Of a DNA stretch of 64,000 nucleotides, positions 37,172 to 63,647 are shown piece after piece. The DNA is from an uncultured Acidimicrobiaceae bacterium. GTDB taxonomy: Bacteria > Actinomycetota > Acidimicrobiia > Spongiisociales > UBA5794. A program made the translations under genes and the position numbers. Location of the stretch: the NCBI GenBank assembly GCA_947259365.1, contig CAMYMC010000021.1:135816-199815 (forward strand), in the 5' to 3' direction. Under the pieces are notes generated by a model. It saw only the letters and a program-made list of their open reading frames with translations, searched no databases and was not told the origin of the DNA. The number at the start of each line of letters is the position of its first letter. The first letter of the stretch is position 1.

Positions 37172-37459
37172 GTGGTGAACGGCCCGATCCTGCGGTTCGT
37201 CACCAGGGAACGCTGCCACATCTGTGAGGAATCCGCAGCGCGGGTTCGGGCGGCGGCGAGGCGGCTCGGCGTCCACGTCCTCGAGGTCGACGTCGACGGC
37301 GACGAGCACCTCCAGGCCGCGTTCGGCGGCCGAGTGCCGGTTGTCCTCAACGCGAGGGACCGGGTGCTCGCCGAGGGCCGCATCGGCACGGGCGCGGCGT
37401 GGCGGGCGGCGTTGCGGGCCAGGGTCGGCGGACGGGGCCGCTTCATGCCCGCCAGCTGA
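37172..37459 (+). CDS. glutaredoxin-like (thioredoxin-fold, CxxC) protein
   Basis: 95 aa. Sequence is LRFVTRERCHICEESAARVRAAARRLGVHVLEVDVDGDEHLQAAFGGRVPVV. It sits just upstream of rex. Confidence 0.7.
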   Translation: MVNGPILRFVTRERCHICEESAARVRAAARRLGVHVLEVDVDGDEHLQAAFGGRVPVVLNARDRVLAEGRIGTGAAWRAALRARVGGRGRFMPAS

Positions 37460-37494
37460 AGTGCTCCGCGGGGTGTCTATCCTCCCGGCGTGAG

Positions 37495-38121
37495 ATGAAC
37501 AGGTCGATTCCAGCGGCGACAGTGAGCCGGCTGCCGATCTATCTGCGGTCCCTGAACGATCTGCCGTCGGGTCAGTCGACGTGCTCCTCAGAGGATCTCG
37601 CCGAGATCGCCGGCGTCAACTCGGCGCAGGTGCGCAAGGACCTCTCGTACCTCGGCTCCCCCGGCGTCCGCGGAGTCGGCTACCACGTCGCCGATCTCCG
37701 TGAGGTACTCCGCCAGGCCCTAGGGCTCACCCAGGGGTACGCGGTCGTCATCGTCGGTGCCGGTCACCTCGGCACGGCACTCGGCAACTACGGCGGGTTC
37801 GAGGCGTGGGGCTTCTCCGTCGTTGCGGTCCTCGACGCCGACGTGGAGAAGGTGGGGACGATGGTCGGCGGACGGGCCGTCGAGGCCATGGAGCGCCTCG
37901 AGGAGATCGTGGCGGCGAGGGAGGTCTCCATCGGGATCATCGCCACGCCGATGGAGGCGGCCCAGGAGATCGCGGAGCGGCTCACGGCAGCGGGGGTTCG
38001 GTCCATCCTCAACTTCGCCCCGACGGTTCTGCGGGTCGCCCCCGGTATCGAGGTGCGGCGCGTGGACCTGTCGACAGAGCTTCAGATCCTGACGTTCCAC
38101 CTCCAGGCGTCCGGCGCCTGA
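37495..38121 (+). CDS. rex: redox-sensing transcriptional repressor Rex
   Basis: Sequence includes ATVSRLPIYLRSL, SSEDLAEIAGVNSAQVRKDLSYLG, GVGYHV, the Rossmann motif VVIVGAGHLG and ILNFAP. Confidence 0.9.
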   Translation: MNRSIPAATVSRLPIYLRSLNDLPSGQSTCSSEDLAEIAGVNSAQVRKDLSYLGSPGVRGVGYHVADLREVLRQALGLTQGYAVVIVGAGHLGTALGNYGGFEAWGFSVVAVLDADVEKVGTMVGGRAVEAMERLEEIVAAREVSIGIIATPMEAAQEIAERLTAAGVRSILNFAPTVLRVAPGIEVRRVDLSTELQILTFHLQASGA

Positions 38122-38129
38122 CGAGGCCG

Positions 38130-38663
38130 TCAGTCCTCGCGGTCCTTCTCGTACCGGTCGAGAGCGACGACGAAGATCATGAAGAGTATGAACGACGCCA
38201 GGGTCATGGCGATGGCGGGAATCCGGATCTGGAAGGCGTTGAGGCCCTCCAGGTTGGCCGGCCGGACGCCGCGGGGCGCGTAGATGACGAAGAGGAGGCT
38301 GCCGATGACGAGCCAGCCAAACGTCGCGGCGCCGGTGATGAGGATCGCGAGCCGGGATCCGACGTTGGTAGAGAGGACGAGCCATACGGTGCCGACGAAG
38401 GCACCGACCGAGACCACGGTGATGAGGATCCCCTTCGTCGCGACCGAGAACGTCTCCGTCTCACCGGCGGCGTTCTTCCGGTTGAAGATGCCGTCGTAGG
38501 CGTCGGCGACGATGCCGCGCAGCGGCGGGATGAACGCGATGATCGACACGACGATGAGCGCAACGCCGAGCCACTCCAGTTTGCTGAGGCCGCGTTCGTC
38601 GTGTCGCAGTGGGATCGACCGGCGATCCCGCCGGCTACGCCCTCGGCGTGGTGGTGTGGTCAC
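38130..38663 (-). CDS. hypothetical membrane protein, last gene of the bc-type operon
   Basis: 177 aa with about 4 TM helices. Its start overlaps the cytochrome c stop by 4 nt. Confidence 0.65.
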   Translation of the reverse strand: MTTPPRRGRSRRDRRSIPLRHDERGLSKLEWLGVALIVVSIIAFIPPLRGIVADAYDGIFNRKNAAGETETFSVATKGILITVVSVGAFVGTVWLVLSTNVGSRLAILITGAATFGWLVIGSLLFVIYAPRGVRPANLEGLNAFQIRIPAIAMTLASFILFMIFVVALDRYEKDRED

Positions 38664-40363
38664 AGCGTCCTCTCGTAGGCGACGATCAACTCGATGTCCT
38701 CGAGGCTGAGGACCTGTCCGAACCCCGGCATCCGTCCGCTGCCGAGACCGTTCACGCCGTAGCTGGCGCCGAACTCGCTACCCCGGATGATGAACGAGAT
38801 CTGATCCTCCTCGACGGGGAATTGGACGACGGACCGTCCGTCCCGCAGCGCCGGACCCCACGCCCCCGACCCGGCGCCTTGCTCGAACGCCACCCCGGCG
38901 CTGTATCCGGCGGTGTGGCAGCGGGCGCAGTAGCCGTTGAAGAGACCGACGGCGCGCTCGGCCTGTGCGGCGTTGACGGCCATGCGGGTGGCGAGCCCGC
39001 TGTAGTCGGCCGTGGTCGCCGTCGTCCCGTCCTCGGCCTCGGCGCTGGTGACCGTCACCCCGTCGGGGATCCACCGCTGGGCAGCGGCCGCGTCCTCGAG
39101 GAAGCGAGTGCCGAGATCGACTGTCTCGAGGAACCGGTCCTGGCGCTCGGTGATCACCGTGAGGGTGAGGATGTCGCTGTCGAGGTGGCCGAGGAACGTC
39201 TCGAGTTCGTCGAGGTCGGCGATCGCGGTGCCGGTGACATCGCTGTTGGTGAACGCCGAGGATGCGTCGAACGAGATGTCGTAGAAGTCGCTCGGCGTCG
39301 CCACGGTCTCGCCTTGGGGCGACACGGTCCTCGTCGTGATCGTGGCGAAGGCCTCTGCGGCGATCCCAGTGAGGACGTCCTCGGCCTCGTCGGCGATGCC
39401 GTCGCGGTCTCGGTCGACACCCTCGATGCCGCACGTCGTCCCGGCGAGCGCCGCCGACTCGTCGGTGCATGCACCGTCGCGGGAGATGAGCAGGCGCACC
39501 GCTTCGTTGAGCTTGAGCTGGGGGTTGGCCGCCGTCTCGGTCGCGAAGGCGCCCGAGTCGGCGAGAAAGCGCGCCTGGTTCTCGAGCTTGGACGGAGCGT
39601 CGAGCACGTCGTCGGTGCGCGCCTGTTGCTCGAGGAGAAGGCGAGCGACGGCCGCGTCGCCGCCGACGATCCTTCCGAGAGCCTGGCCGACCGTGTCCTC
39701 GATCTTCGACAGCGTCTCTCCCTGGGTGATCTGGAAGTTCTCGATGAAGGCGATGACCTGGTCGATCTCCTGGCTGGTCATGGCGCCCCCGCCCTCGAGC
39801 CCGGCGGGTGCCATGGGCGTTCCGGCCCGGCCGTTGACGATGACCTGGCGGATCTCCTCCTCCGAGTACCTGAAGTAGACGTCGTTGAGGCTGGGCGCCG
39901 CCCAGGCGACGTCGATGCCCGAGCGCTTCTCGACGAACGGAGCCCCGCCGCCGGCGCCCACCGGTCCGTGGCACTCGGTGCACACGAACTTCTCCCACCA
40001 CCGCTCGCCTTCTTCGATGTCCTTCTCGTGGATCGCCTCCGCCGCCTTCGCCTGCCGGTTCGACTCGTTGACGTAGTAGACGGGCAGGACGATGGCGAGC
40101 ACGGCAGCGGCGACGACGGCAGCGCCGAGGACCCGGGTGATCCTGTTGACCTCGAGTTCGTCGTCCGAGAGGTAGGGCTGGAGGTTCTTCGGCGTCTCCT
40201 CCGGCTTGGCCCTCCTCGTCCAACTCGCGACCAGGAGGTATCCCATCCAGGCCAGGAACGCCGCCACCGCCACCGTCAGCACGACGGCACCGAGACCGAC
40301 GTTGCTCGGTCCGGCCGGCTCGCTCTCGGAGACGGCCAGGATGATGGGGAGGGCGAGCGTCAT
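38660..40363 (-). CDS. qcrC: membrane-anchored diheme cytochrome c (QcrC-like) with a large inter-domain insertion
   Basis: 567 aa with two N-terminal TM helices. Heme motifs are CTECH (aa 128) and CARCH (aa 479). C-terminal GSGRMPGFG. Confidence 0.8.
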   Translation of the reverse strand: MTLALPIILAVSESEPAGPSNVGLGAVVLTVAVAAFLAWMGYLLVASWTRRAKPEETPKNLQPYLSDDELEVNRITRVLGAAVVAAAVLAIVLPVYYVNESNRQAKAAEAIHEKDIEEGERWWEKFVCTECHGPVGAGGGAPFVEKRSGIDVAWAAPSLNDVYFRYSEEEIRQVIVNGRAGTPMAPAGLEGGGAMTSQEIDQVIAFIENFQITQGETLSKIEDTVGQALGRIVGGDAAVARLLLEQQARTDDVLDAPSKLENQARFLADSGAFATETAANPQLKLNEAVRLLISRDGACTDESAALAGTTCGIEGVDRDRDGIADEAEDVLTGIAAEAFATITTRTVSPQGETVATPSDFYDISFDASSAFTNSDVTGTAIADLDELETFLGHLDSDILTLTVITERQDRFLETVDLGTRFLEDAAAAQRWIPDGVTVTSAEAEDGTTATTADYSGLATRMAVNAAQAERAVGLFNGYCARCHTAGYSAGVAFEQGAGSGAWGPALRDGRSVVQFPVEEDQISFIIRGSEFGASYGVNGLGSGRMPGFGQVLSLEDIELIVAYERTL

Positions 40364-40367
40364 CGGA

Positions 40368-41282
40368 TCAGATGCAGGAGGGACCCTGGGGGTATGGGAT
40401 CGTCTTCTTCTTGGCGCGCGCCGTCTGGAAGATCGCTCCCGTGTTGACGATGAGATCGCCGGTCTCGCTCACGTCGACCTCGAAACGGTCGAGGTTGCGC
40501 GGCGCCGGCCCCGCCTCGTATTCGCCGTGGAAGTTGTACCGCGATCCGTGGCACGGGCACTCGAAACCCTGGCTCGGCACGCACTCGGGCACGCGGCAGC
40601 CGAGGTGGACGCATCGCTGCCACAGCGCCATGAGCCCGACCTCGCCGCCCCCGCCGCCGGCGACGACGGGGAGGCCCTCGAAGGAGCTGCCTGGCAGCTG
40701 GGTGGGGTCGAAGGGGACGATCCACGCCTGAGCGGCCGCCACGAACTTCGGCACGATGACCTCGCCGGAGATCTCACGCCGGATGTCGACGAGGGTGCCG
40801 GCGTTGATCGGCGTTCCGAACCCTCCCCGCAGCTTCGGCCACAGGAAGGCGAGATAGGCGAGGGCCTGCCCGCCGAGAAAGGCACCGCCGAAGAGGCCGA
40901 GCACGGCCCGGTTGAGGAACTTCCGGCGGGTGGCTGCGTACTCCGCGCGGCTGATCTCCTCTCGCTCGAGGAGTGGATCGGGACCTGGCGGAGGAGCCGC
41001 GTCGGCTGGCGCCGGGGCGAGGTCGTCCGGCGCAGCCACGACCTCTGCGTCGGGTGCGGTGTCCTCGTCCTCGCGCACGAGCGTTGCCACCGTCCCGGTG
41101 TCGCCGCCGCCCGCTTCGGCGGCGCGACGGGCCTCAGCTTCGCCGCGGCGCGCTGCCTCCTCGAGGTCGCCGGTGATCGGCCCCGCCGACGGCTCGCGCC
41201 GGGCGGCGACGACGAACACGCCCGCGGAGGCGAGGACCGCGGCGGCGATGATGCCGATGACGAAGATGGTGGTTGGGCTCAT
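40368..41282 (-). CDS. qcrA: Rieske [2Fe-2S] subunit of cytochrome bc-type complex
   Basis: Cluster ligand boxes CVHLGCRV and CPCHGSRY, with an N-terminal TM. The ATG shares 1 nt with the upstream stop (TGATG). Confidence 0.9.
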   Translation of the reverse strand: MSPTTIFVIGIIAAAVLASAGVFVVAARREPSAGPITGDLEEAARRGEAEARRAAEAGGGDTGTVATLVREDEDTAPDAEVVAAPDDLAPAPADAAPPPGPDPLLEREEISRAEYAATRRKFLNRAVLGLFGGAFLGGQALAYLAFLWPKLRGGFGTPINAGTLVDIRREISGEVIVPKFVAAAQAWIVPFDPTQLPGSSFEGLPVVAGGGGGEVGLMALWQRCVHLGCRVPECVPSQGFECPCHGSRYNFHGEYEAGPAPRNLDRFEVDVSETGDLIVNTGAIFQTARAKKKTIPYPQGPSCI

Positions 41283-42355
41283 CAGAAGTCGAAGAAGACG
41301 CCGTCGATCCAGGGATACGTGAAGTTGAAGCCGGGTCCCCGGAAGAACGACCCGTAGATGGTCAGGATGGCCGAGGCGAAGAGGAAGAAGCTGAAGATCA
41401 TGATGGCGAGCTTGCGATCGGACGGTCGCACGGAGGGGTTCCGGTCGATATAGGGGATGATGGCGAGCCCGGCGAGGCCGAGACCGGGGATGGTGACGCC
41501 GGCGACCTGGGGGTCGAAGTACGACAGCATCTCCTGGAGACCGAGGAAGTACCAGGGCGCCTTCGAGGGATTGGGCTGGTCGTTGAAGTTGGCGAACTCG
41601 AGGAGCGGGGCATCGACGAAAGCGGAGAAGACGACGAGCAGGGCTGTGCACGCCATGAGCGCGACGAACTCGATGGCGAGGAGATGCGGCCAGACGTTGA
41701 CCTTGTCGTGCGGCTCGGCCTTCACCTGCTGGATCGCCCCCGCCTTGACGACGGTGAGGAGCCGCTGGGTCCGGACCCCTTCTGGGATGACCGGCGCCGC
41801 CGCCGGTGCGGCCGCCGCCGGTGCTGCCCCCGGTGTCGCGGCTGCGGGTGCCGCCGCCGGCGCGCCCTCGCCGGTGAACGCGGGTGCGGCGATGCCGTCG
41901 TGGCGTGCCCTGGCAACCGCCGCCCGCCGGAGCAGATCGACCGGGACTCCGTACGTGGCCGATTCCGCCTGCAGGTCCCGCGATGGCTCGCCGGCCGGTG
42001 CCGCCGCGGCGACCGGCGCGCCGGCCTCGGCGACGGGCGCGGGCTCTGGGGCCGGTGCCGCCGGCGGCGGCGCTGCCGCCGGTGCCGGCTCGCCCTTCAT
42101 CTCGGCAAGGACCTCTTCGACGTCGCGCCCCTCGGCCTTGGCTCTCGCCTCGGCCGACCGGCGCAGGATGCTCTCGGGAAGGCCGGCCGTCTCCGCCGGT
42201 GCGGGTGGGGTTTCGGCGGCCGCTGGCTCCTCCGCGCGGGGCTCCGGTGGCGACTCTCCTTTGAGCTCGGCGAGCACCTCTTCGACATCGCGGCCTTCCG
42301 CTTTGGCTCTCGCCTCGGCCGTCCTGCGCAGGATGTGCTCCGGTATTTCCGCCAC
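41282..42355 (-). CDS. cytochrome b C-terminal / subunit IV (PetD-like) protein with repeat-containing N-terminal extension
   Basis: The C-terminal ~140 aa include WPHLLAIEFV...NPSKAPWYFLGLQEMLSYF (the PEWYF-type motif). The N-terminal ~215 aa carry three copies of an (I/L/V)P..(I/L)LRR.A.ARA module. GTG start is 4 nt after AGGAG. Confidence 0.8.
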   Translation of the reverse strand: MAEIPEHILRRTAEARAKAEGRDVEEVLAELKGESPPEPRAEEPAAAETPPAPAETAGLPESILRRSAEARAKAEGRDVEEVLAEMKGEPAPAAAPPPAAPAPEPAPVAEAGAPVAAAAPAGEPSRDLQAESATYGVPVDLLRRAAVARARHDGIAAPAFTGEGAPAAAPAAATPGAAPAAAAPAAAPVIPEGVRTQRLLTVVKAGAIQQVKAEPHDKVNVWPHLLAIEFVALMACTALLVVFSAFVDAPLLEFANFNDQPNPSKAPWYFLGLQEMLSYFDPQVAGVTIPGLGLAGLAIIPYIDRNPSVRPSDRKLAIMIFSFFLFASAILTIYGSFFRGPGFNFTYPWIDGVFFDF

Positions 42356-42363
42356 GGTGCTCC

Positions 42364-43146
42364 TCAGAGTGGTCCGGAGATGCCGCCGTCCTTGCGGACT
42401 CTCCAGAAGTGGACGGCCATGAACACGACGATGATGAACGGCAGGAAGAGGACGTGCAGGACGTACCACCTCAATAACGTGTCGGGCGTGATCTGGACGC
42501 CTCCAATGAGGGTGAAGGTCACCTGATCCCCGAACACAGGGACGTACGCGGCCATGTTCGACCCGACCGTCACCGCCCAGATGGCGAGCTGGTCCCAGGG
42601 GAGCAAGTAGCCGGTGAACGACAGCAGGAGCGTCAGCAGCAACAGGATGACCCCGACCATCCAGTTGAACTCCCGGGGAGGCTTGTAGGCCCCGTGGTAG
42701 AAGACCCGCGCCATGTGGAGGAACACCGTGAGGACCATGGCATGGGCGCCCCACCGGTGCATGTTGCGCACGATCTGGCCAAAGGCGACGTCGGTCGAGA
42801 GCGCCTGGATGTCGATGTACGCCGCCGGGGACGTCGGGCGGTAGTAGAACATCAGGAAGATGCCCGTGATCGTGAGCAGGATGAAGAGGAAGAAGCTCAG
42901 CCCACCGAGACACAGCGTGTACGAGAGGCGCACACCGTGGCGCTTCACCTTCACCGGGTGGAGGTGGTACAGCACGTTGTTCATGATGACGTAGGAGCGG
43001 TTCCTCGGGCTGTCGGAGTAACCGGCGCGGAACGGGGAGCCGGGCCGGAAGATGCTCGACCACACCTGGCTCTGGCGGACGTGGTCCGCCGCGTCGGACA
43101 GGCGGTCCCGCAACCCGGGTCTGCCGTTACCCGTGCCGTTCGCCAC
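42364..43146 (-). CDS. qcrB: cytochrome b6-type (N-terminal four-helix, diheme) subunit
   Basis: 260 aa. Sequence includes [47 protein letters not shown] and LHVLFLP. Confidence 0.9.
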
Positions 43147-43221
43147 TCGATGCTCCTCGTCCTGTCGGGCCCTCGGCCCCCGGTGCGGCGTGCAGCGTAT
43201 CCGACCGAGCGGCTTCGAGCA

Positions 43222-43668
43222 TCACCATCTCATCCCGTATGAGTATCCGTTCTTGAAATCGCGCTGGCCGGTGTTGAACTCCCACGGCGACAGGTCGTAC
43301 TCCGAGGTCTGGTCGGACACCGATCCGGCGAACTTGCCGAGGGTGATGACCCCGGTCGGGCAGCGGTCGATGCAGAGCGCGCACCTCGTGCACTCGTCCT
43401 CGTCGACGAGGAAGAAGCCCATGTTCTCCGTCTTGTCCGCCGGGTTCTCGACGTTCGCCGCCTCCGCGATCGCGTCGAGAGAGAGGTAATGGATGCACTT
43501 CCAGGGGCAGATGTCGACGCACCCCTCACAGAGGATGCACTCCGACTGGTCGATGTGGAGGAACTGCTTCGGCTTGACCGCGGCCCTGAGGTACTCGTCG
43601 TCGACCGCGGCCAGCTGGTAGTCGTCGCGGATCGGTGGCGTCTCGAACCAGACGTCGGTCTTCGCCAT
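43222..43668 (-). CDS. 2x[4Fe-4S] ferredoxin-type protein encoded within the bc-type operon
   Basis: 148 aa with two CxxCxxCxxxCP motifs: CILCEGCVDICP and CTRCALCIDRCP. Confidence 0.85.
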   Translation of the reverse strand: MAKTDVWFETPPIRDDYQLAAVDDEYLRAAVKPKQFLHIDQSECILCEGCVDICPWKCIHYLSLDAIAEAANVENPADKTENMGFFLVDEDECTRCALCIDRCPTGVITLGKFAGSVSDQTSEYDLSPWEFNTGQRDFKNGYSYGMRW

Positions 43669-43671
43669 CGC

Positions 43672-44274
43672 CTACCTCCCCACCTTCGTGAGGGGGCGTC
43701 CGTAGGGCGAGACCGGCTCCGGCTTCGGGGTCGTGACCCGCTTGCCCGCCCGGACCTGCCACTGGTACATGGCGAAGACGATGAGTCCGGTGATGACGAG
43801 GTGGTAGATGCCGGACACCGCGTCCTTGACGGCGGCGTACGAGATGGACACCTCGTTGTTGAGCATGAGCCACTTCGGGAGCGTGATCGCGATCCTCTGC
43901 GGCGTCCACTCCCACACCGATTGCGTCAGCGTGAGCCACTCGTTGGGCACGAGTCCGTAGAGGATCATCATCAGGGTGGTGAAGAGAGTGGCGCCGAGCG
44001 AGGCCCGGGCCCACGTCATCTCCCGCTGGTAGAGGAAGGCCACGGCGACGCCCGCGATGAGGACGAGACCGCCGGCGAGGGAGATGACCTGGCCGATGAC
44101 GACCCACTGCCATCCCCGGGGTATGGCCGGGTAGATCTCCGCACCGACATCGTTGAGTTCTGACAAGCCGGTGAAGTGGGCGAACAGCGCCCCGGCGATC
44201 GTCACGAAGCCACCGGCGAGGATGGCGGCGATCCCGATCCTGCGGTACTTGTTCAGCTCGCGGATGTCGGTCAT
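43672..44274 (-). CDS. hypothetical membrane protein, first gene of the bc-type operon
   Basis: About 200 aa from the ATG (MTDIRELNKYRR), with 5-6 TM helices. Its stop lies 3 nt before the ferredoxin start. Confidence 0.6.
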   Translation of the reverse strand: MTDIRELNKYRRIGIAAILAGGFVTIAGALFAHFTGLSELNDVGAEIYPAIPRGWQWVVIGQVISLAGGLVLIAGVAVAFLYQREMTWARASLGATLFTTLMMILYGLVPNEWLTLTQSVWEWTPQRIAITLPKWLMLNNEVSISYAAVKDAVSGIYHLVITGLIVFAMYQWQVRAGKRVTTPKPEPVSPYGRPLTKVGR

Positions 44275-44486
44275 TTCGGCGGCATCGCTCCGTGGCGTCG
44301 GGACCGTGTCGGGTCGGCTCGCGACCGTACCGCTCGGCATTCTACGCACGGCTCACGGCGACACGAACTCGGCCCCGGACGGCACGGAGATGGATTCACC
44401 GCGCCGGCGCGGCGAAGCTAGGCTGCCCTCCGCCGCGCCACAGGACTGTGGGACGAACCAGTGCGTACGGGGAGGAGCCACGGGCG

Positions 44487-46427
44487 GTGACGACCGATAC
44501 CTTGGCCGACTCACCGGAGACGGCCGACCCGCAGCCTGAGCCCTCGTACACACCGGAATCCGACGGAGCCAGCCGGCTCCACCTGCTCGTCTCCTTCGCG
44601 TTCCTCCTCGAGGCGCTCCTCGCCGGCCTCCTGCTCGCCGCTCGCTTCGTCGAGCCGGATCTCCTCGGTGATGTCGCGTTCTTGTCGTCCGGCCGGCTGC
44701 AGCCCGTCGCGACGCATCTGTTCGTCTACGGCTGGGTCACGATCGGGCTCCTCGGGGCCGCCTACTACGTACTGCCCCGGGTGAGCGGCGCACCGCTGCG
44801 GAGTCCTGGTCGGGCCGGGGTCGCCCTCGTCCTGCTCACCGTCGGGTACGCCGCAGGCGCCGTCGGCATCGCCCTCGGGATGAGCGAGGGCCGTCGTCTC
44901 CTCGAGGCGCCGCTGTGGGCCGACGTCATCGTCCTGGCCGGTCTCCTCGCCGCCGCCTCGATCGTGACGGCCACTGTCCGCCAGCGCACCGACCTGGGTC
45001 CGGCCCAATGGTATTTCACCGCGGCGACGTGGTGGCTCGTGCTCCTCCACGTCGTCGGGAACATTCCCGGCGTCGCCGGCGTGGGATCGGCGCTGCAGAC
45101 ATCGTTCTACCGCGCGGGCCTCATCGGGCTCTGGGTGGCCGCCGCCGGCGTCGGCGTCGTGTATTACGTCATCCCGAGGTTGACGGGCCGGACGGCCCTC
45201 GCCCCGACGCAGATGTCGGTCATCGGTCTCTGGTCGCTCGCCTTCGTGTGGGCGCTCACCGCTCCCTCCGACCTCACCTACGGACCGACGCCGGACTGGC
45301 TCGACACGGTGAGCGTCATCTTCGCCATCGGGATGGTCATCCCGGTGGCCGTGATCATCGCCGACGTCGTGACCGCGATGCGGGGCAGGTGGGTCGACGT
45401 CTCGGGGACCATCACCATCCGCTACCTCATGGCCGGTGCGGTCGCGCTCGGGCTCATCCCGGCCGTCAACCTCCTCGTCGCCCTGCGCGGCCCCTCGACC
45501 GTCGTCGGTTTCACGGACTGGGCGCCCGCCATCGATTTCCTCGCCGTGGGGCTGGCGGCCACGTTCTGGCTGCTGGCCTACGTCGCCGTCGCCGCCCCCG
45601 ACCTCAGGATCGGGGGTCCGCCTCTGACCCGGTGGCCGTATCGGGTGACCGTCCTCGGCGGCGCGCTGTTCGTCGCCGGCTTGCTTCTCGGCGGTGCGCT
45701 TGCCGGGCTCACCTGGCTCGGTGGCGCCAACTCGGGGGTGTATGCCAACACCGGCGACGGGTTCCAAGCGACGGCGAGGGCTCTCGAGGGCATCTACGTC
45801 ATGCGCCTCGTCGGCTACGCGATCTACGCCTACGGTCTGTTCTGGTTCGCTCTCAGCCTCGTCCGCAGACGTGCCCTGGACGCGTCGCGGCCGGTGACCC
45901 GCTACGGCTCCGACATCGAGCTCGACCCCGAGGTCGTTCTGCGCAAACCGCTGCGACTCGGCAGCCTGGCCGGCACCGGGCTGGCCTTGTTCGGGGCCGC
46001 GGTGCTGTTCGCCTTCGTCGTGCCGGCGCTCGAAACCGGTGGCGCCGAGCCAACTCTCCTCGCCGATGAGCACAGGCTCTACGTCGAGGGGACCGCAGCG
46101 GCCGAAGGGCGTGAGGTGTATCTCCGCGAGGGCTGCCAGGTATGCCACACGCAGGCAGTGCGCCCGATCGTGACCGACGTCGGGCTCGGCGCCGTCGGCG
46201 TGCCCGGTGACTACGCCCACGAGGTCCCGGCCGCGATCGGCTCGACGCGCGTGGGGCCAGACCTCATGCACGCCGCCGCGGGGTCCGTCGCCGCGGACGC
46301 CGCCGCGCTCGAGGCTTACCTCGTCGACCCCCGCGCCGTGCGGTCGTGGTCCATCATGCCCGCGTACGCCCACCTGTCCGACGCCGACCGCGACGCACTC
46401 GTCGCCTACATCCTGACTCTCGACTGA
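44487..46427 (+). CDS. CcoN-like (heme-copper oxidase subunit I fold) / CcoO-like (FixO monoheme c) fusion; the CcoN-like part lacks active-site histidines
   Basis: GTG start 9 nt after GGGGAGGAG. The ~470-aa polytopic region has YYVLPR, YYVIPR, PDWLDT and FTDW landmarks. It is followed by a TM and then EVYLREGCQVCHTQAVRP...STRVGPDL...DPRAVRSWSIMPAY, a typical CcoO pattern. Confidence 0.75.
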   Translation: MTTDTLADSPETADPQPEPSYTPESDGASRLHLLVSFAFLLEALLAGLLLAARFVEPDLLGDVAFLSSGRLQPVATHLFVYGWVTIGLLGAAYYVLPRVSGAPLRSPGRAGVALVLLTVGYAAGAVGIALGMSEGRRLLEAPLWADVIVLAGLLAAASIVTATVRQRTDLGPAQWYFTAATWWLVLLHVVGNIPGVAGVGSALQTSFYRAGLIGLWVAAAGVGVVYYVIPRLTGRTALAPTQMSVIGLWSLAFVWALTAPSDLTYGPTPDWLDTVSVIFAIGMVIPVAVIIADVVTAMRGRWVDVSGTITIRYLMAGAVALGLIPAVNLLVALRGPSTVVGFTDWAPAIDFLAVGLAATFWLLAYVAVAAPDLRIGGPPLTRWPYRVTVLGGALFVAGLLLGGALAGLTWLGGANSGVYANTGDGFQATARALEGIYVMRLVGYAIYAYGLFWFALSLVRRRALDASRPVTRYGSDIELDPEVVLRKPLRLGSLAGTGLALFGAAVLFAFVVPALETGGAEPTLLADEHRLYVEGTAAAEGREVYLREGCQVCHTQAVRPIVTDVGLGAVGVPGDYAHEVPAAIGSTRVGPDLMHAAAGSVAADAAALEAYLVDPRAVRSWSIMPAYAHLSDADRDALVAYILTLD

Positions 46428-46436
46428 GCCGCGACC

Positions 46437-47348
46437 ATGGACGAACTCCTCCAGCTCATCTCCAACCGACTCGGTGTGCCGACCGATCTCCTCGAGCGTG
46501 CCGCAGCCGCCCGCGCCGCGGCGAGCGGCTCGGGCGCCGAGGACATCGTCCGCTCATGGGCCGGGGACGAGGCGCCGCTTCCGGCGGCCGCGGCCCCGCC
46601 GCCGCAGCCGGCGCCGGCCGCGCCCGTCGCTGCCGAGTCCGCTCCCGCCCCGCCCCCACCGGCACCGCCGGCCGCTACGGAGGCGGAGAGCCCGGCCGTC
46701 GAGGTGCTTCTCCCCGCCGAGCCGGCAGCCGGCGACAGTGACGACGGCGGCGAGGACGAGGCCGTGCAGCCGGCAGCGGCCGGCGATCGATCCACGGTGC
46801 TCAGCGGCTTCCCGCGCTGGCTCGCCGCCTCCTTCGTCCTCCTCCCGCTCGCCGCGCTCCTCTACGCGCTCGTGACTCCGAACGCCCCCGATTGCGGCAG
46901 TGCCGGCCAGCTCGCCGTCGACCCGGTCACGGGTGTCGCGGTGAACTGCGATGGCTCGCCGTACGGTGTCGACGCCGTCGACTTCTTCGCCATCGGCGAG
47001 GAGGTCTATTCCGGGAAGTGCGCCGCCTGCCACGGCGCCGCCGGCGGAGGCGGGGTGGGACCGGCGTTCACGGGCGGCGCTGTGCTCGCGACGTTCCCCG
47101 CATGCGGCGAGCACATCACGTGGGTCGAGATCGGCTCCATCGGCTGGCCCGACCCGACGTACGGCGCCAACAACACACCGGTGCTCGGCAGCGGCGCCGT
47201 GATGCCGGGCTTTGCCGCACCGGTGCTCACCGCCGAGGAGCTGGCGTCGGTCGTTCTCTACGAGCGCGTGGCCTTCGGGGGGGAAGCGCTGCCCGAAGCC
47301 GAGGGCGGCTGCGGACTCACCGGCGGCACGGTCGTCGCGGCACCCTGA
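46437..47348 (+). CDS. membrane-anchored monoheme cytochrome c (CcoP-position gene)
   Basis: 303 aa. The N-terminal module is GVPTDLLERAAAARAAASG, followed by an Ala/Pro-rich linker and a TM (WLAASFVLLPLAALLYALV). The heme motif is CAACH, and MPGF is present. Confidence 0.8.
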   Translation: MDELLQLISNRLGVPTDLLERAAAARAAASGSGAEDIVRSWAGDEAPLPAAAAPPPQPAPAAPVAAESAPAPPPPAPPAATEAESPAVEVLLPAEPAAGDSDDGGEDEAVQPAAAGDRSTVLSGFPRWLAASFVLLPLAALLYALVTPNAPDCGSAGQLAVDPVTGVAVNCDGSPYGVDAVDFFAIGEEVYSGKCAACHGAAGGGGVGPAFTGGAVLATFPACGEHITWVEIGSIGWPDPTYGANNTPVLGSGAVMPGFAAPVLTAEELASVVLYERVAFGGEALPEAEGGCGLTGGTVVAAP

Positions 47349-47627: not shown

Positions 47628-48809
47628 TTGACTGGGCGGGTGCGGACCATCACCACGGCCGAGCGGAGGGCTCGTCTCGGGACGCGCCACGGGCTCGGCG
47701 TCGCCTTCCCAGATGTCGACGACGCCGCTGCCGCCGCCGTCGGGCTCCATTCGAGTGATCCGGCGACGGTGTTCCTCTCCGCCCGGGCCCGCTGCGACGG
47801 GTTGGAGGTGGGCGACCTCGAGAACGCCCTCTACGAGCGCCGCTCCCTCGTGCGGATGCTGGGCATGCGGCGGACGCTCTTCGTTGTCTCCCTCGAGGTC
47901 GCCGCGGAGATGGATGCCGCATGCACGAGAGCACTCGCGGGGACAGAAACCGCCCGTCTCGCCCGCATGCTCGAAGAACAGGGCATCGCGACGGACGGCG
48001 CCCGCTGGGTCGAGCGTGTCGAGCGCGACACCCTCGCCGCGGTCTCCGCCCGCAAGGAGGCCACCGCCGGCAAGCTCGGCGAGGACGTTCCGGAGCTGCG
48101 GCTCAAGCTCACCTTCGGTGAGGGCAAGACGTGGGGCGGCACGGTGGGGGTCTCCACCCGGGTGCTGTTCCTGCTCGCCACCAAAGGCCTCATCGTCAGG
48201 ACCCGCCCGCTGGGGACGTGGCTGTCGAGCCAGTACCGGTGGGCGCCGACGGAGGAGTGGATCGGCGGCCGGCTCGAGTCCCTCGAGACTGCAGACGCTG
48301 CAGCGAGACTGACGCGGCGCTGGCTCCGCTCCTACGGTCCCGGCACCCTCGCCGACCTGAAGTGGTGGACGGGGTGGACCGTGGCCCTCACCCGGCGGGC
48401 GCTTGCAGACGCGGGCGCCGTCGAGGTCGAGCTCGACGAAGGACCGGGCTTCGTCCTCGCCGACGACGTCGAACCGGTCACCGCGTCCCCGGACTGGGCA
48501 GCGCTCCTGCCCGGCCTCGACCCCGCCGTCATGGGGTGGAAGGACCGGGACTGGTACCTCGGCGGCCACGGCGCGGCGCTCTTCGACCGCAACGGCAACG
48601 CCGGGCCGACCGTCTGGTGGAACGGCAGGGTCGTCGGGGGGTGGGGGCAACGAGCCGACGGTGAGATGGCCGTTCGGCTGCTCGAGGACCCCGGGGCCGA
48701 GGCTCGGTCGCTCATCGATGCCGAGGCGGAGCGGCTCGCGACGTGGCTCGGTGACGTGCGGGTCACACCCCGGTTCCGCACCCCGGTCGAGAAGGAGCTC
48801 CGCGGCTGA
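47628..48809 (+). CDS. winged-helix DNA-binding domain protein (YcaQ/AlkZ-like DNA glycosylase family)
   Basis: 393 aa. Sequence includes LHSSDPATVFLSARAR, LYERRSLVRMLGMRRTLF, YRWAP, RRWLRSYGPGTLADLKWWTG and GPTVWWNGRVVGGW. The start is TTG at 47628 or GTG at 47640. Confidence 0.78.
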   Translation: MTGRVRTITTAERRARLGTRHGLGVAFPDVDDAAAAAVGLHSSDPATVFLSARARCDGLEVGDLENALYERRSLVRMLGMRRTLFVVSLEVAAEMDAACTRALAGTETARLARMLEEQGIATDGARWVERVERDTLAAVSARKEATAGKLGEDVPELRLKLTFGEGKTWGGTVGVSTRVLFLLATKGLIVRTRPLGTWLSSQYRWAPTEEWIGGRLESLETADAAARLTRRWLRSYGPGTLADLKWWTGWTVALTRRALADAGAVEVELDEGPGFVLADDVEPVTASPDWAALLPGLDPAVMGWKDRDWYLGGHGAALFDRNGNAGPTVWWNGRVVGGWGQRADGEMAVRLLEDPGAEARSLIDAEAERLATWLGDVRVTPRFRTPVEKELRG

Positions 48810-48879: not shown

Positions 48880-50145
48880 ATGAGCCAGCAGCCCGACGTC
48901 GTGGTGGTCGGTGGCGGTCCCGGGGGGGCAGCCGCGGCGTACTGGCTCGCCCGCAAGGGCGCCTCGGTGCTCGTCGTCGAGAAGAAGTCGTACCCGAGGG
49001 AGAAGACGTGCGGCGACGGCTTGACGCCGCGGGCCGTCCGCCAGCTCATCGACATGGGCTACGACTTCGACGTCCCGGAGCTGCACCGGGTGACCGGGTT
49101 GCGGGCCTACGCCGGTGAGCTGACCATCGAGCTGCCCTGGCCGAGGCACACGATCTATCCCGATTGGGGCGTCGTCATCCGCCGGGCGGACCTCGACATG
49201 CACGTGGCCCGTCTCGCCGAGAAACAGGGCGCGGTCATCCGGGAGCGCACCGAGGCGGCGCCGGTGCTCGACGCAGGTGGGCGTCTGCGCGGCGTCTCGC
49301 TGCGCAGCGCCGACGCCGACGTCGAAGAGGTCGAGGTCCTGTCCCCGAAGGTCGTCGTCATCGCCGACGGGTCTCTGTCCCGGTTCGGCCGGGCCATGGG
49401 CGCGGTGCGCCGGCGCGACTACCCCTTCGGCCTCGCCGTGCGCGGTTACCACGCCAGCCGCAACTCGACGGATCCGATGCTGGAGAGCCAGCTCAACATC
49501 TTCGACTCCGAAGGGAGAGCGCTGCCCGGGTACGGGTGGATCTTCCCCCTCGGAGACGGGACCATCAACATCGGCGCCGGGGTCATCTCGAGTTTCAAGG
49601 GGTGGAAGGACGTCAACACGTCGAAGGTCCTCGACGCCTACATCGCGGGTCTGCCGGCGTACTGGGGCGTGGACGGCTCGTCGGAGATCACGAAACCTAT
49701 CGGAGGCAAGCTCCCGATGTCGTTCTCCGTCGCGCCGAAGGTCGGCCGCAACTGGCTCGCGGTCGGCGACGCCGTCGGCGCGGTGAACCCGTTCAACGGC
49801 GAGGGCATCGACTACGCCTACGAGACAGGTCGCATGGCGGCCGACGTCATCACGGAGGCGATCGGCGCGGACGATCTCACGCGGCTGACCCGGTACCGCG
49901 ACGCGCTCGAAGACGAGTACGGCGACTACCACCGGGTGGCGCGGGCGTTCGTCATCGCCGTCGGCAACCCGCGGGTGATGCGGACCCTCACCCGGACCGG
50001 TCTCCGCTCCCGGCCGCTCATGGAGTGGGTCCTCAAGGTGATGGCCAACCTCCTCGAGCCCGAGGACTACGGCATGGCGGAGCGGGTGTTCCACGCCATC
50101 GAGAAGATCGTCAAGGTCGGACCGGAGCCGCTGCTCAGGGCGTGA
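48880..50145 (+). CDS. geranylgeranyl reductase family FAD-dependent oxidoreductase (menaquinone-reductase-like)
   Basis: Sequence includes DVVVVGGGPGGAAAAYWLARKG, KTCGDGLTPRA, GYGWIFPLGDGTINIG and AVGDAVGAVNPFNGEGIDYA. Confidence 0.85.
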   Translation: MSQQPDVVVVGGGPGGAAAAYWLARKGASVLVVEKKSYPREKTCGDGLTPRAVRQLIDMGYDFDVPELHRVTGLRAYAGELTIELPWPRHTIYPDWGVVIRRADLDMHVARLAEKQGAVIRERTEAAPVLDAGGRLRGVSLRSADADVEEVEVLSPKVVVIADGSLSRFGRAMGAVRRRDYPFGLAVRGYHASRNSTDPMLESQLNIFDSEGRALPGYGWIFPLGDGTINIGAGVISSFKGWKDVNTSKVLDAYIAGLPAYWGVDGSSEITKPIGGKLPMSFSVAPKVGRNWLAVGDAVGAVNPFNGEGIDYAYETGRMAADVITEAIGADDLTRLTRYRDALEDEYGDYHRVARAFVIAVGNPRVMRTLTRTGLRSRPLMEWVLKVMANLLEPEDYGMAERVFHAIEKIVKVGPEPLLRA

Positions 50146-50276
50146 CGGCGCCCGGGCAGCGGCCCGCTGATCCCGCAGCGGATCGGGTCTTCGCTCCCAG
50201 TTCACCATCGGCGGGAAGGATTTTGGTGGTGCCTGCCGCGTTCCTAATCTCCGCTCCGGACGAGGAGTCTCCCGCC

Positions 50277-50699
50277 ATGACGCTTGCCGACTACCTGCCG
50301 ATCGCGCTGATGTTCGTGCTCGGCGTCGGGTTCGCCTCGGTCGCGATGTACTTCTCGTGGCGCATCGCACCGAAGAAGCCCACCCCGGAGAAGCTCGCAC
50401 CGTACGAGTGCGGCATCGTCCCCCTCCAGGAGCCGGCACAGCGGTTCCCCGTCAAGTTCTACATGGTGGCGATGCTCTTCGTCATCTTCGATGTCGAGAT
50501 CATCTTCCTGTTCGCCTGGGCCGTGCGTTTCGACCAGTTCGGGTGGGCCGGGATCGCAGCAGTCGGGATCTTCGTCGCGCTCCTCATCGAGACGCTCGTG
50601 TACGTCTGGAAGCGCGGCGCCTTGGACTGGAATGTTGCCCGGCGCGCCCGGTACCGCCGCGTGGTGGCACCGGAACGGGTGCAGGAGGAAGCCGCCTGA
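50277..50699 (+). CDS. nuoA: NADH-quinone oxidoreductase subunit A
   Basis: YECG and [11 protein letters not shown] motifs. GAGGAG lies 9 nt upstream of the ATG. Confidence 0.9.
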
Positions 50700-51169
50700 T
50701 GGCAGGGAGGAGTGAGCCTCCCGGCTTTCTGCTCACGACTCTCGACAAGGGGGTCAACTGGGCCCGCACCCGCTCGATGTGGGGCGCCGTGTTCGGGCTG
50801 GCGTGCTGCGCGATCGAGATGATGGCCACCGGCGCCTCCCACAACGACCTCGGTCGCTTCGGGATGGAGGTGTTCCGGGCCTCTCCCCGCCAGGCAGATC
50901 TCATGATCGTCGCCGGGAGGGTGTCCCAGAAGATGGCGCCCGTCCTCCGCCAGGTCTACGACCAGATGTCGGAGCCGAAGTGGGTCATCTCGATGGGGGC
51001 GTGCGCCTCGACCGGCGGGATGTTCAACAACTACGCCCTCGTCCAGGGGGTGGATCAGGTCGTCCCTGTCGACATGTACGTCCCGGGGTGCCCGCCAGGT
51101 CCCCAGTCGCTCATGCACGGGATCCTGACGCTGCACGACAAGATCATGGCCGGCGACATCGACCGCTGA
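50699..51169 (+). CDS. nuoB: NADH-quinone oxidoreductase subunit B
   Basis: [20 protein letters not shown] and VPGCPP motifs. The ATG overlaps the nuoA stop. Confidence 0.92.
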
Positions 51170-51189
51170 GGACAACGGAGACCCAGGAC

Positions 51190-51741
51190 ATGACAGACGC
51201 ACCACAGACGGAGTCGCCGGCGGCGGATGAGCAGACCGCGGCGGCGGACCCGCCGGTCGACGTCGCCCTGGACGGCCTCGCTGCCGCCGTGCCGGGGGCG
51301 CGGTTCGAGCGGCTTGCAGCGCCCACCGGCCACGCTCAGGATGTCCTCGTCGTCGATCGCGACGGCTATCCGGACCTCGTCGCCGCCGTCCACGAAGCCG
51401 GCTACGACGTCTTCGTCGATCTGTGCGCCGTCGACTACCTCAGTCGCGATCCCCGCTTCGAGGTCGTCGTCGTCCTTCTCGATCACGACGCCGGCAGGCG
51501 GGTGCGGATCCGAACCGGAGTTCCCGGCGGCGACCCATCGATCGCGAGCATCACCCGGGTCTTCCCCGGCGCCAACTTCTACGAGCGGGAAGCCTTCGAC
51601 CTGTTCGGCATCGATTTCGAGGGCCACCCGGATCTGACCCGGATCCTCCTCCCCGACGACTGGGAGGGCCATCCCCTCCGCAAGGACTACCCGGTCGGCT
51701 CGGTCCCGGTGCAGTTCAAAGAGGCGCACAAGGTCACGTGA
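51190..51741 (+). CDS. nuoC: NADH-quinone oxidoreductase subunit C
   Basis: FPGANFYEREAFDLFGIDFEGHPDLTRILLPDDWEGHPLRKDYP. Confidence 0.9.
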   Translation: MTDAPQTESPAADEQTAAADPPVDVALDGLAAAVPGARFERLAAPTGHAQDVLVVDRDGYPDLVAAVHEAGYDVFVDLCAVDYLSRDPRFEVVVVLLDHDAGRRVRIRTGVPGGDPSIASITRVFPGANFYEREAFDLFGIDFEGHPDLTRILLPDDWEGHPLRKDYPVGSVPVQFKEAHKVT

Positions 51742-51748
51742 GGCAGCG

Positions 51749-53185
51749 ATGAGCGACACCCCCGACCTCGCCACCGGCAACCTCGAAGCTCCGACCACCG
51801 AGGCCCCTCCCGAGAGCGCGGCGCAGCCCTCGCCGACCGCGAGACAGCGGCGAGAGGTCCACGACGCGTGGGTGGCGGGGACGGAGGAGCCCGCCTGGGT
51901 GCGCGAAGCGACGGACGAGGGCGCCCAGGAGCTGCTTCCGGAAGCGGACGACCCGGCGGCGTCGTCGCAGCGAGGCATCGTCGTCGCCGACGACTACGTC
52001 GTCGAGGACGACGTGGACGAGGAGGAGCGCCAGATCATCAACATGGGGCCGCAGCACCCGTCGACCCACGGTGTGCTCCGTCTCCATCTCGAGCTCGAAG
52101 GCGAGAAGATCCACCGGGTGAAGCCGATCATCGGTTACCTCCACACCGGCATGGAGAAGACGGCCGAGACGCTCACGTACCTCCAGGGCGGTACGAACGT
52201 CACGCGGATGGACTACCTGTCACCGTTCCACAACGAGCTCGTCTACTCGCTCGCCGTCGAGCAGCTCCTCGGCATCGACGTTCCGCCGCGCGCGGAAGCC
52301 ATCCGCATCCTCATGACCGAGCTCAACCGGATCGCCAGCCATCTCGTCTGGATCGCCACCCAGGGCATGGATGTCGGTGCGATCTCGATGATGCTCTACG
52401 GGTGGCGCGAGCGCGAGCTGTGCCTCGATTTCTTCGAGAAGGTGACCGGCCTGCGGATGAACCACAACTACGTCCGTCCGGGCGGTGTCGCCGCAGACCT
52501 ACCCGACGGTTGGGAGGACGACGTCGAGGTGATCCTCACGAGGATCCCCGCGGCGCTCGCCGAGTACGAGGAGATCCTCAACGCCAACCCGATCTTCCTC
52601 GACCGCACCCAGGGTGTCGGCGTCATCACCCCCGAGGAGTGCCGGGCGTTCGGCGTCACGGGGGCAAACGCCAGGGCCTCCGGTGTCGACTGGGACCTGC
52701 GCAAGGCCTTCCCCTACTCGGGCATCGACCGTTACGACTTCGACGTGCCGCTGGGCACGCACGGCGACGTCTACGACCGCTGGCTCGTTCGGCTCGAGGA
52801 GATCCGCCAGAGCCTGCGAATCGTCTCCCAGGTCCTCGCCACGATGCCCGCCGGCGACTACCGCACCGACGACCGGAAGGTCACGCCGCCGCCTCGCAAG
52901 CGCATCGACGAGTCGATGGAGGCGCTCATCCACCACTTCAAGCTCTTCACCGAGGGCTTCAAGGTGCCGGAGGGTGAGGTCTACCAAGCGGTGGAGTCAC
53001 CCCGGGGCGAGCTCGGCGTCTACCTCGTCTCCAACGGAGGGGCGCGGCCGTGGCGGCTCCACATGCGGACGCCGTCGTTCGCTCACGTCCAGGCGCTGCC
53101 GGTGATGATGACCGACTCGCTCGTCGCCGACATCGTGGCGACCCTCGCCTCGGTCGACCCGGTGCTCGGAGACGTCGACCGATGA
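51749..53185 (+). CDS. nuoD: NADH-quinone oxidoreductase subunit D (long acidic N-terminal extension)
   Basis: NMGPQHPSTHGVLRL occurs at about aa 98, with HTGMEKT and a C-terminal RTPSFAHVQAL...VLGDVDR. Confidence 0.9.
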   Translation: MSDTPDLATGNLEAPTTEAPPESAAQPSPTARQRREVHDAWVAGTEEPAWVREATDEGAQELLPEADDPAASSQRGIVVADDYVVEDDVDEEERQIINMGPQHPSTHGVLRLHLELEGEKIHRVKPIIGYLHTGMEKTAETLTYLQGGTNVTRMDYLSPFHNELVYSLAVEQLLGIDVPPRAEAIRILMTELNRIASHLVWIATQGMDVGAISMMLYGWRERELCLDFFEKVTGLRMNHNYVRPGGVAADLPDGWEDDVEVILTRIPAALAEYEEILNANPIFLDRTQGVGVITPEECRAFGVTGANARASGVDWDLRKAFPYSGIDRYDFDVPLGTHGDVYDRWLVRLEEIRQSLRIVSQVLATMPAGDYRTDDRKVTPPPRKRIDESMEALIHHFKLFTEGFKVPEGEVYQAVESPRGELGVYLVSNGGARPWRLHMRTPSFAHVQALPVMMTDSLVADIVATLASVDPVLGDVDR

Positions 53186-58611: not shown

Positions 58612-58621
58612 GGAGGGTGTG

Positions 58622-59907: not shown

Positions 59908-60209
59908 CGGTGACGGCCGGCTGGTACATGGCGCTGGCTGCTTCGCTGTTCACGATCGGCGCCGCCGGCCTGTTGCTGCGCCGAAACGCCCTCGTCATGT
60001 TCATGTCGATCGAGCTCATGCTCAACAGTGTGAACCTCACGTTCGTGGCCGCCGGGCGCGAGCTCGGCGTGCTCGAGGGCCAGCTCTCCGTCCTGTTCGT
60101 GATGGTGGTCGCCGCGGCCGAGGTGACCGTCGGCCTCGCCATCATCGTCGCCGTCTTCCGCAACCGGGCAACGGCCAGCGTCGACGAGCTCACCGGGTTG
60201 AGGGGATAG
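59904..60209 (+). CDS. nuoK: NADH-quinone oxidoreductase subunit K
   Basis: 101 aa. ATGA overlap with nuo[12 protein letters not shown] and [11 protein letters not shown]. Confidence 0.9.
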
Positions 60210-60213
60210 CGCC

Positions 60214-63644: not shown

Positions 63645-63647
63645 CCG

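Follow-up and report, generated by a model that had tools for sequence, protein, structure and literature searches.

The b6-type complex III operon of Acidimicrobiia encodes a dicluster ferredoxin with the conservation of a core subunit, which is probably a cytoplasmic iron–sulphur port

A seven-gene complex III operon with a ferredoxin gene is conserved in Acidimicrobiia

On a stretch of 64,000 nucleotides from an uncultured Acidimicrobiaceae bacterium (contig CAMYMC010000021.1; the whole stretch is called the window below), seven genes on the minus strand (38130-44274) encode a b6-type complex III together with a 2x[4Fe-4S] ferredoxin (fdx) and two small membrane proteins, here named memA and memB. 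In Acidimicrobiia, this set of seven genes is the standard operon for complex III. In its degree of conservation, the ferredoxin resembles a core subunit, and it is likely to be a bound iron–sulphur port on the cytoplasmic (n) side of the complex. The preliminary description of this DNA proposed the ferredoxin and the two membrane proteins as possible extra subunits, providing an additional entry or exit for low-potential electrons, and this proposal is now supported by synteny, conservation and the homology of the ferredoxin to a domain of GltD-like proteins.

The first gene of the operon, memA (43672..44274, minus strand, as are all seven), encodes 200 residues with four predicted transmembrane (TM) helices. 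It is followed by fdx (43222..43668), whose 148-residue product, a predicted cytoplasmic protein, matches Fer4 families, and by the genes for a four-helix cytochrome b6 (42364..43146; Pfam Cytochrome_B, E 7.6e-48), a petD-type subunit IV (41282..42355; Pfam Cytochrom_B_C), a Rieske [2Fe-2S] protein with the cluster boxes CVHLGC and CPCHGSRY (40368..41282) and a membrane-anchored dihaem cytochrome c with two CxxCH motifs and two N-terminal TM helices (38660..40363). The last gene, memB (38130..38663), encodes 177 residues with four TM helices. All seven appear in the list of open reading frames (ORFs) at the positions originally given for them, and the tight packing noted at the time is borne out. 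Counted from memA to memB, the gaps measure 3, 75, 8, −1, 4, and −4 nucleotides; overlapping junctions, which had also been remarked upon, account for two of the six (the start of memB and the stop of the cytochrome c gene overlap by 4 nucleotides), and the only gap exceeding 8 nucleotides is the one of 75 between fdx and b6. The longest ORF for memA begins at 44349 with GTG, and the ATG at 44274 yields the 200-residue length of its homologues. The GC content of the window is high (0.66-0.73), and that at third codon positions was 0.89-0.94 for those ORFs of the operon that were scored, which is of the coding type.

The genes were located with the window proteins (tblastn) in a set of 82 loci, two of which came from protein look-up and 80 from contigs found in a scan of one genome per species. 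Among the 600 pattern matches listed in that scan, 598 encode a relative of the ferredoxin, so that there are at least 598 such stretches; the best 80 of these were analysed, and nearly all of them are labelled Acidimicrobiia, Acidimicrobiaceae, or Actinomycetota. The preliminary description had tied its proposal to the ferredoxin and membrane-protein genes staying with the bc genes in relatives. They do: the order memA-fdx-b6-subunit IV-Rieske-cytochrome c-memB was found in every sufficiently long locus among the 82, and memA lies immediately upstream of fdx in 82 of 82. The arrangement, which recurs in every locus long enough to show it, is far beyond chance. Median identity to the window across the loci was 80% for b6, 72% for the ferredoxin, 68% for subunit IV, 54% for memB, 51% for the Rieske protein, 39% for memA and 37% for the cytochrome c. 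The ferredoxin, therefore, ranks second in conservation among the products of the operon, after b6.

Protein searches returned 1995 homologues of the ferredoxin, the best 120 of which are 74-86% identical to it and nearly constant in length; where an organism is named among these 120, it belongs to the Acidimicrobiia. When representatives clustered at 50% identity were searched exhaustively, just 21 clusters were found at E <= 1e-30, and the ferredoxin family is therefore narrow. Its most divergent full-length members (35-45% identity to the window protein; "Actinomycetota bacterium" where named) are likewise encoded between a small membrane ORF and b6. Two of these distant loci, L083 and L091, lie on long contigs, and both retain the whole order through a memB-like gene.

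Outside its family, the ferredoxin is closest to domains of oxidoreductases, mostly encoded beside Rieske genes

The ferredoxin contains two exact CxxCxxCxxxCP motifs, with an insert of 38 residues between them. Nine Cys are invariant, the N- and C-terminal extensions are conserved as well (the C terminus reads GYxYGxRW), and the net charge of the protein is −13. Neither a signal peptide nor a twin-arginine translocation (Tat) motif was found in its sequence. Searched against the Protein Data Bank (PDB), it matched a polyferredoxin as the best single domain (31 bits), NuoI-type subunits scoring ∼23-26 bits.

Beyond its own family, the ferredoxin comes closest to the dicluster domain at the C terminus of GltD-like NAD(P) oxidoreductases. 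These are proteins of 550-685 residues, which consist of Fer4_20, an FAD/NAD(P)-binding Pyr_redox_2 domain and the C-terminal Fer4 dicluster. The matches run in a single stretch (55-68 bits, 38-44% identity) and include an insert of similar length. Both groups have the signature C(I/V)LCxxCxDxCPxxC(I/L)...DExxC(I/T)RCxLCxxxCP in common, including the extra Cys after CP. On three of the four contigs that were checked, the GltD-like gene is situated directly upstream of a Rieske gene, stop and start codons overlapping; in two of these three, the next genes encode a long cytochrome b and a multihaem cytochrome c, and the third contig ends after the Rieske gene. Because its homologues are dicluster domains encoded beside Rieske and cytochrome b genes, the ferredoxin is, judged from its sequence, best read as a stand-alone, cytochrome-b-proximal iron–sulphur part of an oxidoreductase module of the kind known from anammox bacteria.

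A variation on this gene arrangement is seen in L096 (2-2444), where two tandem GltD-like genes with a related dicluster domain lie upstream of a Rieske gene. The cytochrome b of this locus has 529 residues and reads WGLGG, that is, it has no haem-ci Cys; an N-terminal motif, SQVWRSIFR, is common to it and the b6 proteins of the ferredoxin-type operons.

The core subunits are of the b6 type

The haem ligands of b6 are spaced H130-x13-H144 in helix B and H231-x14-H246 in helix D, and its best matches in the PDB are the b6 proteins of cyanobacteria and chloroplasts (E 2e-47). Cys79, followed by LGG, aligns with the Cys that binds haem cn in the cyanobacterial CLGG motif, and LCLGG is present in 77 of 78 loci; on the strength of this CxGG motif, a covalently bound haem ci (cn) is predicted for b6. 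A basic N-terminal extension of ∼55 residues precedes the conserved core of the protein and is practically invariant across the Acidimicrobiia loci. The NCBIfam model for ExtP, which b6 passes (306.5 bits versus a cut-off of 290), begins at residue 54, so that the extension lies outside the model. At about residues 59-63, which is 16-18 residues upstream of the haem-ci Cys, 77 of 78 loci encode the motif YHLHP.

Subunit IV has three C-terminal TM segments and carries the Qo motif APWY in 68 of 69 loci. The Glu of its WPHxxxxEF motif is invariant and, in a HMMER alignment, falls one position before Phe40 of the Chlamydomonas subunit IV. The Phe40 position is where a Glu ligand of a low-potential haem ci has been reported (PMC12954380), which makes the invariant Glu a candidate ligand of haem ci. 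The petD-type part is preceded by an Ala/Pro-rich N-terminal region of ∼215 residues. This region contains three copies of a motif of ∼30 residues, P..(I/L)LRR(S/T/A)AEARAKAEGR..EEVLAE, which are connected by Ala/Pro-rich linkers; their AEARAKAEGR-type cores are encoded at 42305-42334, 42140-42169, and 41906-41935 (minus strand). At least one copy is found in 64 of 69 subunit IV orthologues, and the motif matched nothing in Pfam at E <= 0.01. A further copy (46488-46517, plus strand) lies in the N terminus of the neighbouring CcoP-like cytochrome c, before its TM helix; the only other match in the window is in an apparently noncoding frame. The motif may be a docking element common to complex III and the oxidase.

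The Rieske box CPCHGS[KR]Y is conserved in 65 of 68 loci, CVHLGC is practically invariant, and in the CPCHGSRY of the window protein the two hydrogen-bond donors, Ser and Tyr, are present. The protein begins with an extra N-terminal TM helix, followed by ∼100 acidic, Pro-rich residues, a twin-arginine-like motif (RRKF) and the anchor helix. With the linker placed between the extra helix and the anchor, it would pass the membrane twice and expose a cytoplasmic loop. The dihaem cytochrome c is of class I (PF13442 and PF00034), and its position is kept in all long loci. In the window, an insert of ∼270 residues separates its two haem domains; the counterparts in L083 and L091 have ∼300-330 residues and no such insert.

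The two membrane proteins have no recognisable family

Each of the 444 homologues of memA and each of the 411 homologues of memB is annotated as "hypothetical". For neither protein was a family found in Pfam (E <= 0.01) or NCBIfam, nor a sequence match in the PDB. AlphaFold2 models them as helical bundles (pLDDT 81.5 for memA and 70.4 for memB), with which Foldseek retrieved nothing better than E 0.37 and a TM-score of 0.36. The distant loci encode divergent counterparts of both at the same positions of the operon: the upstream protein of L092 ends in the YGRPL tail typical of memA, and the N-terminal pair of TM helices of the 341-residue downstream protein of L083 is homologous to memB. In the window, this tail concludes the C terminus of memA, which is basic (charge +6), Pro-rich and cytoplasmic, and the N terminus of memB is basic as well (charge +6), as are residues 1-70 of b6 (charge +7). 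The basic segments of all three proteins that face the cytoplasm are, thus, complementary in charge to the ferredoxin. memA is a candidate anchor for it.

The ferredoxin as a probable n-side port

In the model that we favour, b6 with its covalent haem ci, subunit IV, the Rieske protein and the dihaem cytochrome c would form a "b6c"-type menaquinol:cytochrome c oxidoreductase, which probably hands its electrons to the CcoNO-type oxidase encoded next to the operon. memA, the ferredoxin and memB would be lineage-specific obligate partners of this complex, and the acidic ferredoxin would sit on its cytoplasmic face, held there by the basic segments of memA, memB and b6. From the gene content, the motifs and the synteny observed, together with the conservation of the ferredoxin and its homology to a GltD-like domain, we infer that it is physically bound, that it is located on the n side and that it exchanges electrons with haem ci; taken as a whole, this model is probably correct. 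The two [4Fe-4S] clusters of the ferredoxin would then wire the bH/ci region to the cytoplasm over a short distance.

As to the direction of flow, an outlet is slightly preferred, the reverse course from the ferredoxin through the Qi site to menaquinone being nearly as likely. Cultivated Acidimicrobiia use menaquinone, and the Rieske protein has the Ser/Tyr pair of Kuste4569, the potential of which is +303 mV; the preference is based on these two features, from which the symmetry argument of PMC12954380 predicts a b chain of very low potential that can reduce iron–sulphur clusters. In this case, a side branch would leave the Q cycle: quinol bifurcation at the Qo site would send low-potential electrons via haems bL, bH, and ci and onward to the ferredoxin. 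In its strongest form, the outlet would make the complex a quinol-based, electron-bifurcating ferredoxin reductase within an aerobic respiratory chain, which obtains a reductant near −400 mV from respiration. The high-potential Rieske protein and the low-potential menaquinol would together push the second electron through bL, bH, and ci, possibly by way of an extra inter-monomer haem held by YHLHP, and onto the bound ferredoxin. This far-reaching form is rather doubtful.

Several points weigh against the ferredoxin being a dedicated port. A homologue of it (P0176; L093 672-1085, 40% identical, found by tblastn) adjoins no cytochrome b or Rieske gene, and the same is true of one of the GltD-like proteins (P0219; L094 7001-8764). 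The ExtP proteins of Geobacter, which are relatives of the window b6, work without a ferredoxin. The features of the Qi site look intact, and the complex is apparently the main complex III of its hosts, where the Q cycle would have to compete with a leak to the ferredoxin. The potential of the Rieske protein is predicted from just two residues. Finally, the databases contain apparent memA-fdx and fdx-b6 fusions (P0153, P0159, P0165, P0186, P0191, P0195, and P0209); they hold long, Arg/Pro-rich out-of-frame stretches, look like frameshifts and were rejected as artefacts.

The alternative that survives best is that the ferredoxin is mainly an inlet, which is a possibility, if a tentative one. 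Cytoplasmic 2-oxoacid:ferredoxin oxidoreductases, or similar enzymes, would deliver electrons through its clusters to haem ci and the Qi site, and the complex would serve as a ferredoxin:menaquinone reductase as well. Such an inlet would correspond to a hard-wired form of the cyclic-flow route of the b6f complex, in which haem cn has long been suggested to accept electrons from ferredoxin (PMC5600118). The haem-ci Cys and the subunit IV Glu beside the Phe40 position are invariant, so that a working Qi site seems to be retained; the hosts possess complex I and an adjacent oxidase, so that feeding the quinone pool would make physiological sense; and a side reaction from ferredoxin to quinone would be less wasteful in what appears to be the main complex III. 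However, the conserved neighbourhood encodes no ferredoxin-reducing enzyme, the homologous module of anammox bacteria has been argued to run outward, to NAD(P)+ (PMC12954380), and the Ser/Tyr Rieske protein of the high-potential type points, in conjunction with menaquinone, to a b chain of very low potential.

Alternatively, fdx, memA and memB could be co-transcribed helpers, for example, in attaching haem ci or inserting another cofactor on the n side, or the ferredoxin could be a soluble carrier. In chloroplasts, the attachment of haem ci requires dedicated n-side factors (the CCB system), none of which is recognisable in the loci examined, and the membrane proteins, being without a recognisable fold or family, might take this place. 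Yet Pfam, which presumably includes the CCB-related families, yielded no match for either of them, and no link of memA or memB to CCB maturation proteins emerged from Pfam or NCBIfam. Furthermore, an assembly factor seldom ranks second in conservation among the products of its operon, the domains to which the ferredoxin is most closely related belong to a structural n-side subunit encoded in related operons, and the extreme acidity of the ferredoxin and the invariance of its terminal extensions speak for a partner that is docked permanently. Helpers of this kind are, thus, unlikely. Even less credible is a bound but nonconducting remnant of a larger oxidoreductase module, which would stabilise the complex or sense redox state or oxygen: the ferredoxin does resemble a GltD-like subunit truncated to the part without the FAD and NAD(P) domains, and the gene for the redox sensor Rex is a conserved neighbour, but hundreds of species show no change in the nine Cys or in either cluster motif, and relics of purely structural function usually lose their cluster ligands. 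It is the degree of conservation, together with the homology to a structural subunit, that disfavours both of these accounts relative to the bound port.

Genes adjoining the operon

The gene for the redox-sensing repressor Rex (37399..38121, plus strand; NCBIfam Rex, 297 bits versus a cut-off of 226) lies directly downstream on the opposite strand, as had been described, and converges with memB at a distance of 8 nucleotides. Most long loci have it downstream of the operon, as does the distant locus L083. An operator of the Streptomyces Rex type (TGTGAA-N4-TTCACA, allowing two mismatches) was not found anywhere in the window.

Upstream of memA, and divergent from it, the window encodes a fused CcoN-CcoO-like haem-copper oxidase (44292-46427, plus strand; Pfam COX1 and FixO), the start of which is likely near 44487, and a CcoP-like cytochrome c (46437-47348, plus strand). 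The oxidase or its CcoP-like cytochrome c is probably the electron acceptor of the complex; the CcoNO-like gene occupies the same divergent position in nearly all of the 80 loci. Its product is itself highly divergent (TIGR ccoN, 95 bits versus a cut-off of 583; PRK14485, 171 versus 1080). The intergenic region between memA and the ccoNO-like gene (44275..44486) holds a GC-rich palindrome at 44395-44416 (TTCACCGCGCC followed by GGCGCGGCGAA), which does not resemble the Rex operator. No sigma-70 consensus was found in this region, and a scan of 37-45 kb for promoters and terminators gave nothing exceeding the expectation from shuffled sequence.

The 3′ part of the window (∼50000-64000, plus strand) is filled by a nuo operon encoding complex I, with genes for NuoD-like (51749-53185), NuoG (54887-57562), NuoH (57559-58611), NuoJ (59329-59907), and NuoL/M proteins (60214-63644). 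Complexes I and III and the oxidase, thus, form one respiratory island, which is interrupted by the gene for an AlkZ-like DNA glycosylase (47628-48809, plus strand) between the oxidase genes and the nuo operon.

Novelty and implications

Soil, freshwater, the ocean (Actinomarina), sponges and activated sludge all harbour abundant Acidimicrobiia, the complex III of which has apparently not been described beyond a remark on the split cytochrome b of Ilumatobacter. Literature searches, which covered the full text of the articles proper, returned no description of a ferredoxin gene in an actinobacterial b6-type operon. That Rieske/cytochrome b complexes can carry an iron–sulphur or NAD(P) module on the n side is already known from anammox bacteria.

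If the ferredoxin is indeed an n-side subunit, the complex would be a natural b6-type complex with an iron–sulphur partner permanently attached at the haem ci side. It would then bear on whether ferredoxin exchanges electrons with haem cn, the route proposed for photosynthetic cyclic flow, and equally on whether bifurcation at the Qo site can reduce low-potential acceptors, as has been proposed for the anammox bacteria, which are hard to grow. Aerobic and cultivable Acidimicrobiia would make both questions accessible to biochemistry and cryo-electron microscopy, and, should the bifurcating reading be true, they would be the first tractable system for both problems.

For the time being, the names in current use are misleading. 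The ferredoxin appears in the databases as "4Fe-4S binding protein", "NuoI", or "PreA subunit", and b6 can be given the name "ExtP", that is, of a part of a selenite/tellurite reduction system; automatic pipelines may misname the b6 proteins of Acidimicrobiia as "selenite/tellurite reduction operon b-type cytochrome" in this way.

Comparison with known complexes

The well-studied actinobacterial complex III is QcrCAB of Mycobacterium and Corynebacterium, and the contrast that the preliminary description drew with it is correct: the window proteins remain far below the cut-offs of the corresponding NCBIfam models (QcrB, NF050120, 109.6 bits versus 500; QcrA, NF050121, 20.0 versus 275; QcrC, NF050122, 21.6 versus 200). 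What the two have in common, apart from the phylum and the respiratory role, is a Rieske protein with more than one TM helix and a dihaem cytochrome c, the latter suggesting a direct wiring to the oxidase, as in QcrCAB. In contrast to QcrCAB, the cytochrome b of the window is split instead of forming a QcrB of ∼540 residues, the haem-ci motif, the ferredoxin, memA and memB are added, and the neighbouring oxidase is of the CcoNO type, not aa3.

The core of the complex is closer to cytochrome b6f of cyanobacteria and chloroplasts and to the b6c complexes of Firmicutes (Bacillus and Heliobacteria), with which it shares the split into b6 and subunit IV, the Hx14H spacing in helix D and the CxGG motif. 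The features of a b6f/b6c-type complex are all present, namely, a bis-His b6, the Cys of CxGG, a separate subunit IV with three helices and the Rieske cluster boxes. The likeness to the Firmicute b6c complexes extends to a Glu near the position of the haem-ci ligand and to a c-type cytochrome that replaces cytochrome f. A b6f complex in the strict sense it is not, as the operon contains no genes for cytochrome f, PetG, PetL, PetM, or PetN. It differs from b6f further in its Qo motif (APWY instead of PEWY or PDWY), in the N-terminal extension of b6 and the repeat region of subunit IV, and in its dedicated ferredoxin with memA and memB, whereas binding of ferredoxin to the n side of b6f is debated and transient.

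Of ExtOPQ of Geobacter, the Rieske protein, cytochrome b and membrane protein encoded in the extHIJKLMNOPQS cluster, it is the ExtP model that b6 passes, as stated above. An identity of b6 with Geobacter ExtP was nevertheless rejected: subunit IV fails the model of the partner protein ExtQ (56.1 bits versus a cut-off of 150), and genes for the porin ExtI, the rhodanese ExtH and the multihaem cytochromes ExtKLMNS, which make up the ext context, are missing here. Conversely, the ext cluster of Geobacter contains no ferredoxin gene. Judged by its motifs (APWY and CxGG in a short cytochrome b), b6 belongs to the "APWY clade" of Kao and Hunte, in which the split cytochrome b of Ilumatobacter had already been placed, and of which, as these authors stress, no member has been characterised (PMC4122944). 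In the scheme of Dibrova et al, its counterpart is subfamily G, which is heterogeneous (PMC5600118).

It is in subfamily G, and in anammox bacteria in particular, that a cytoplasmic NAD(P) oxidoreductase is joined to the Rieske/cytochrome b core (PMC5600118; PMC12954380). In AlphaFold 3 models of the Kuenenia complexes, this oxidoreductase lies on the n side, and its [4Fe-4S] clusters link the region of haem cN to the FAD in a chain; Arg511 and Arg550 in its C-terminal part contact a predicted inter-monomer haem, which is bound by an N-terminal His of each cytochrome b (PMC12954380). The operons concerned (Kuste4569-4574 and Kustd1480-1485) resemble that of the window in encoding an iron–sulphur module together with a Rieske/cytochrome b core, and the published models likewise have a separate protein similar to subunit IV as well as haem cN. 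The module of the window is a homologue of the dicluster [4Fe-4S] domain of the GltD-like subunit, and the Ser/Tyr pattern of its Rieske protein is that of the high-potential Kuste4569 (+303 mV; PMC12954380). However, the ferredoxin has neither the FAD/NAD(P) domain nor the N-terminal Fer4_20 of the anammox oxidoreductase, and no Pyr_redox, FAD or NAD domain was found in the seven products (Pfam) or their conserved flanks. In the GltD-type loci examined here, cytochrome b is long, unsplit and without the haem-ci Cys, unlike the b6 of the window. The gene order differs from that of the anammox operons as well, fdx preceding b6 and the Rieske gene following subunit IV; a dihaem cytochrome c takes the place of the multihaem or HAO-like cytochromes, and memA and memB are additional. 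A final difference is that, in the hosts of the operon described here, genes for complex I and a haem-copper oxidase lie close by.

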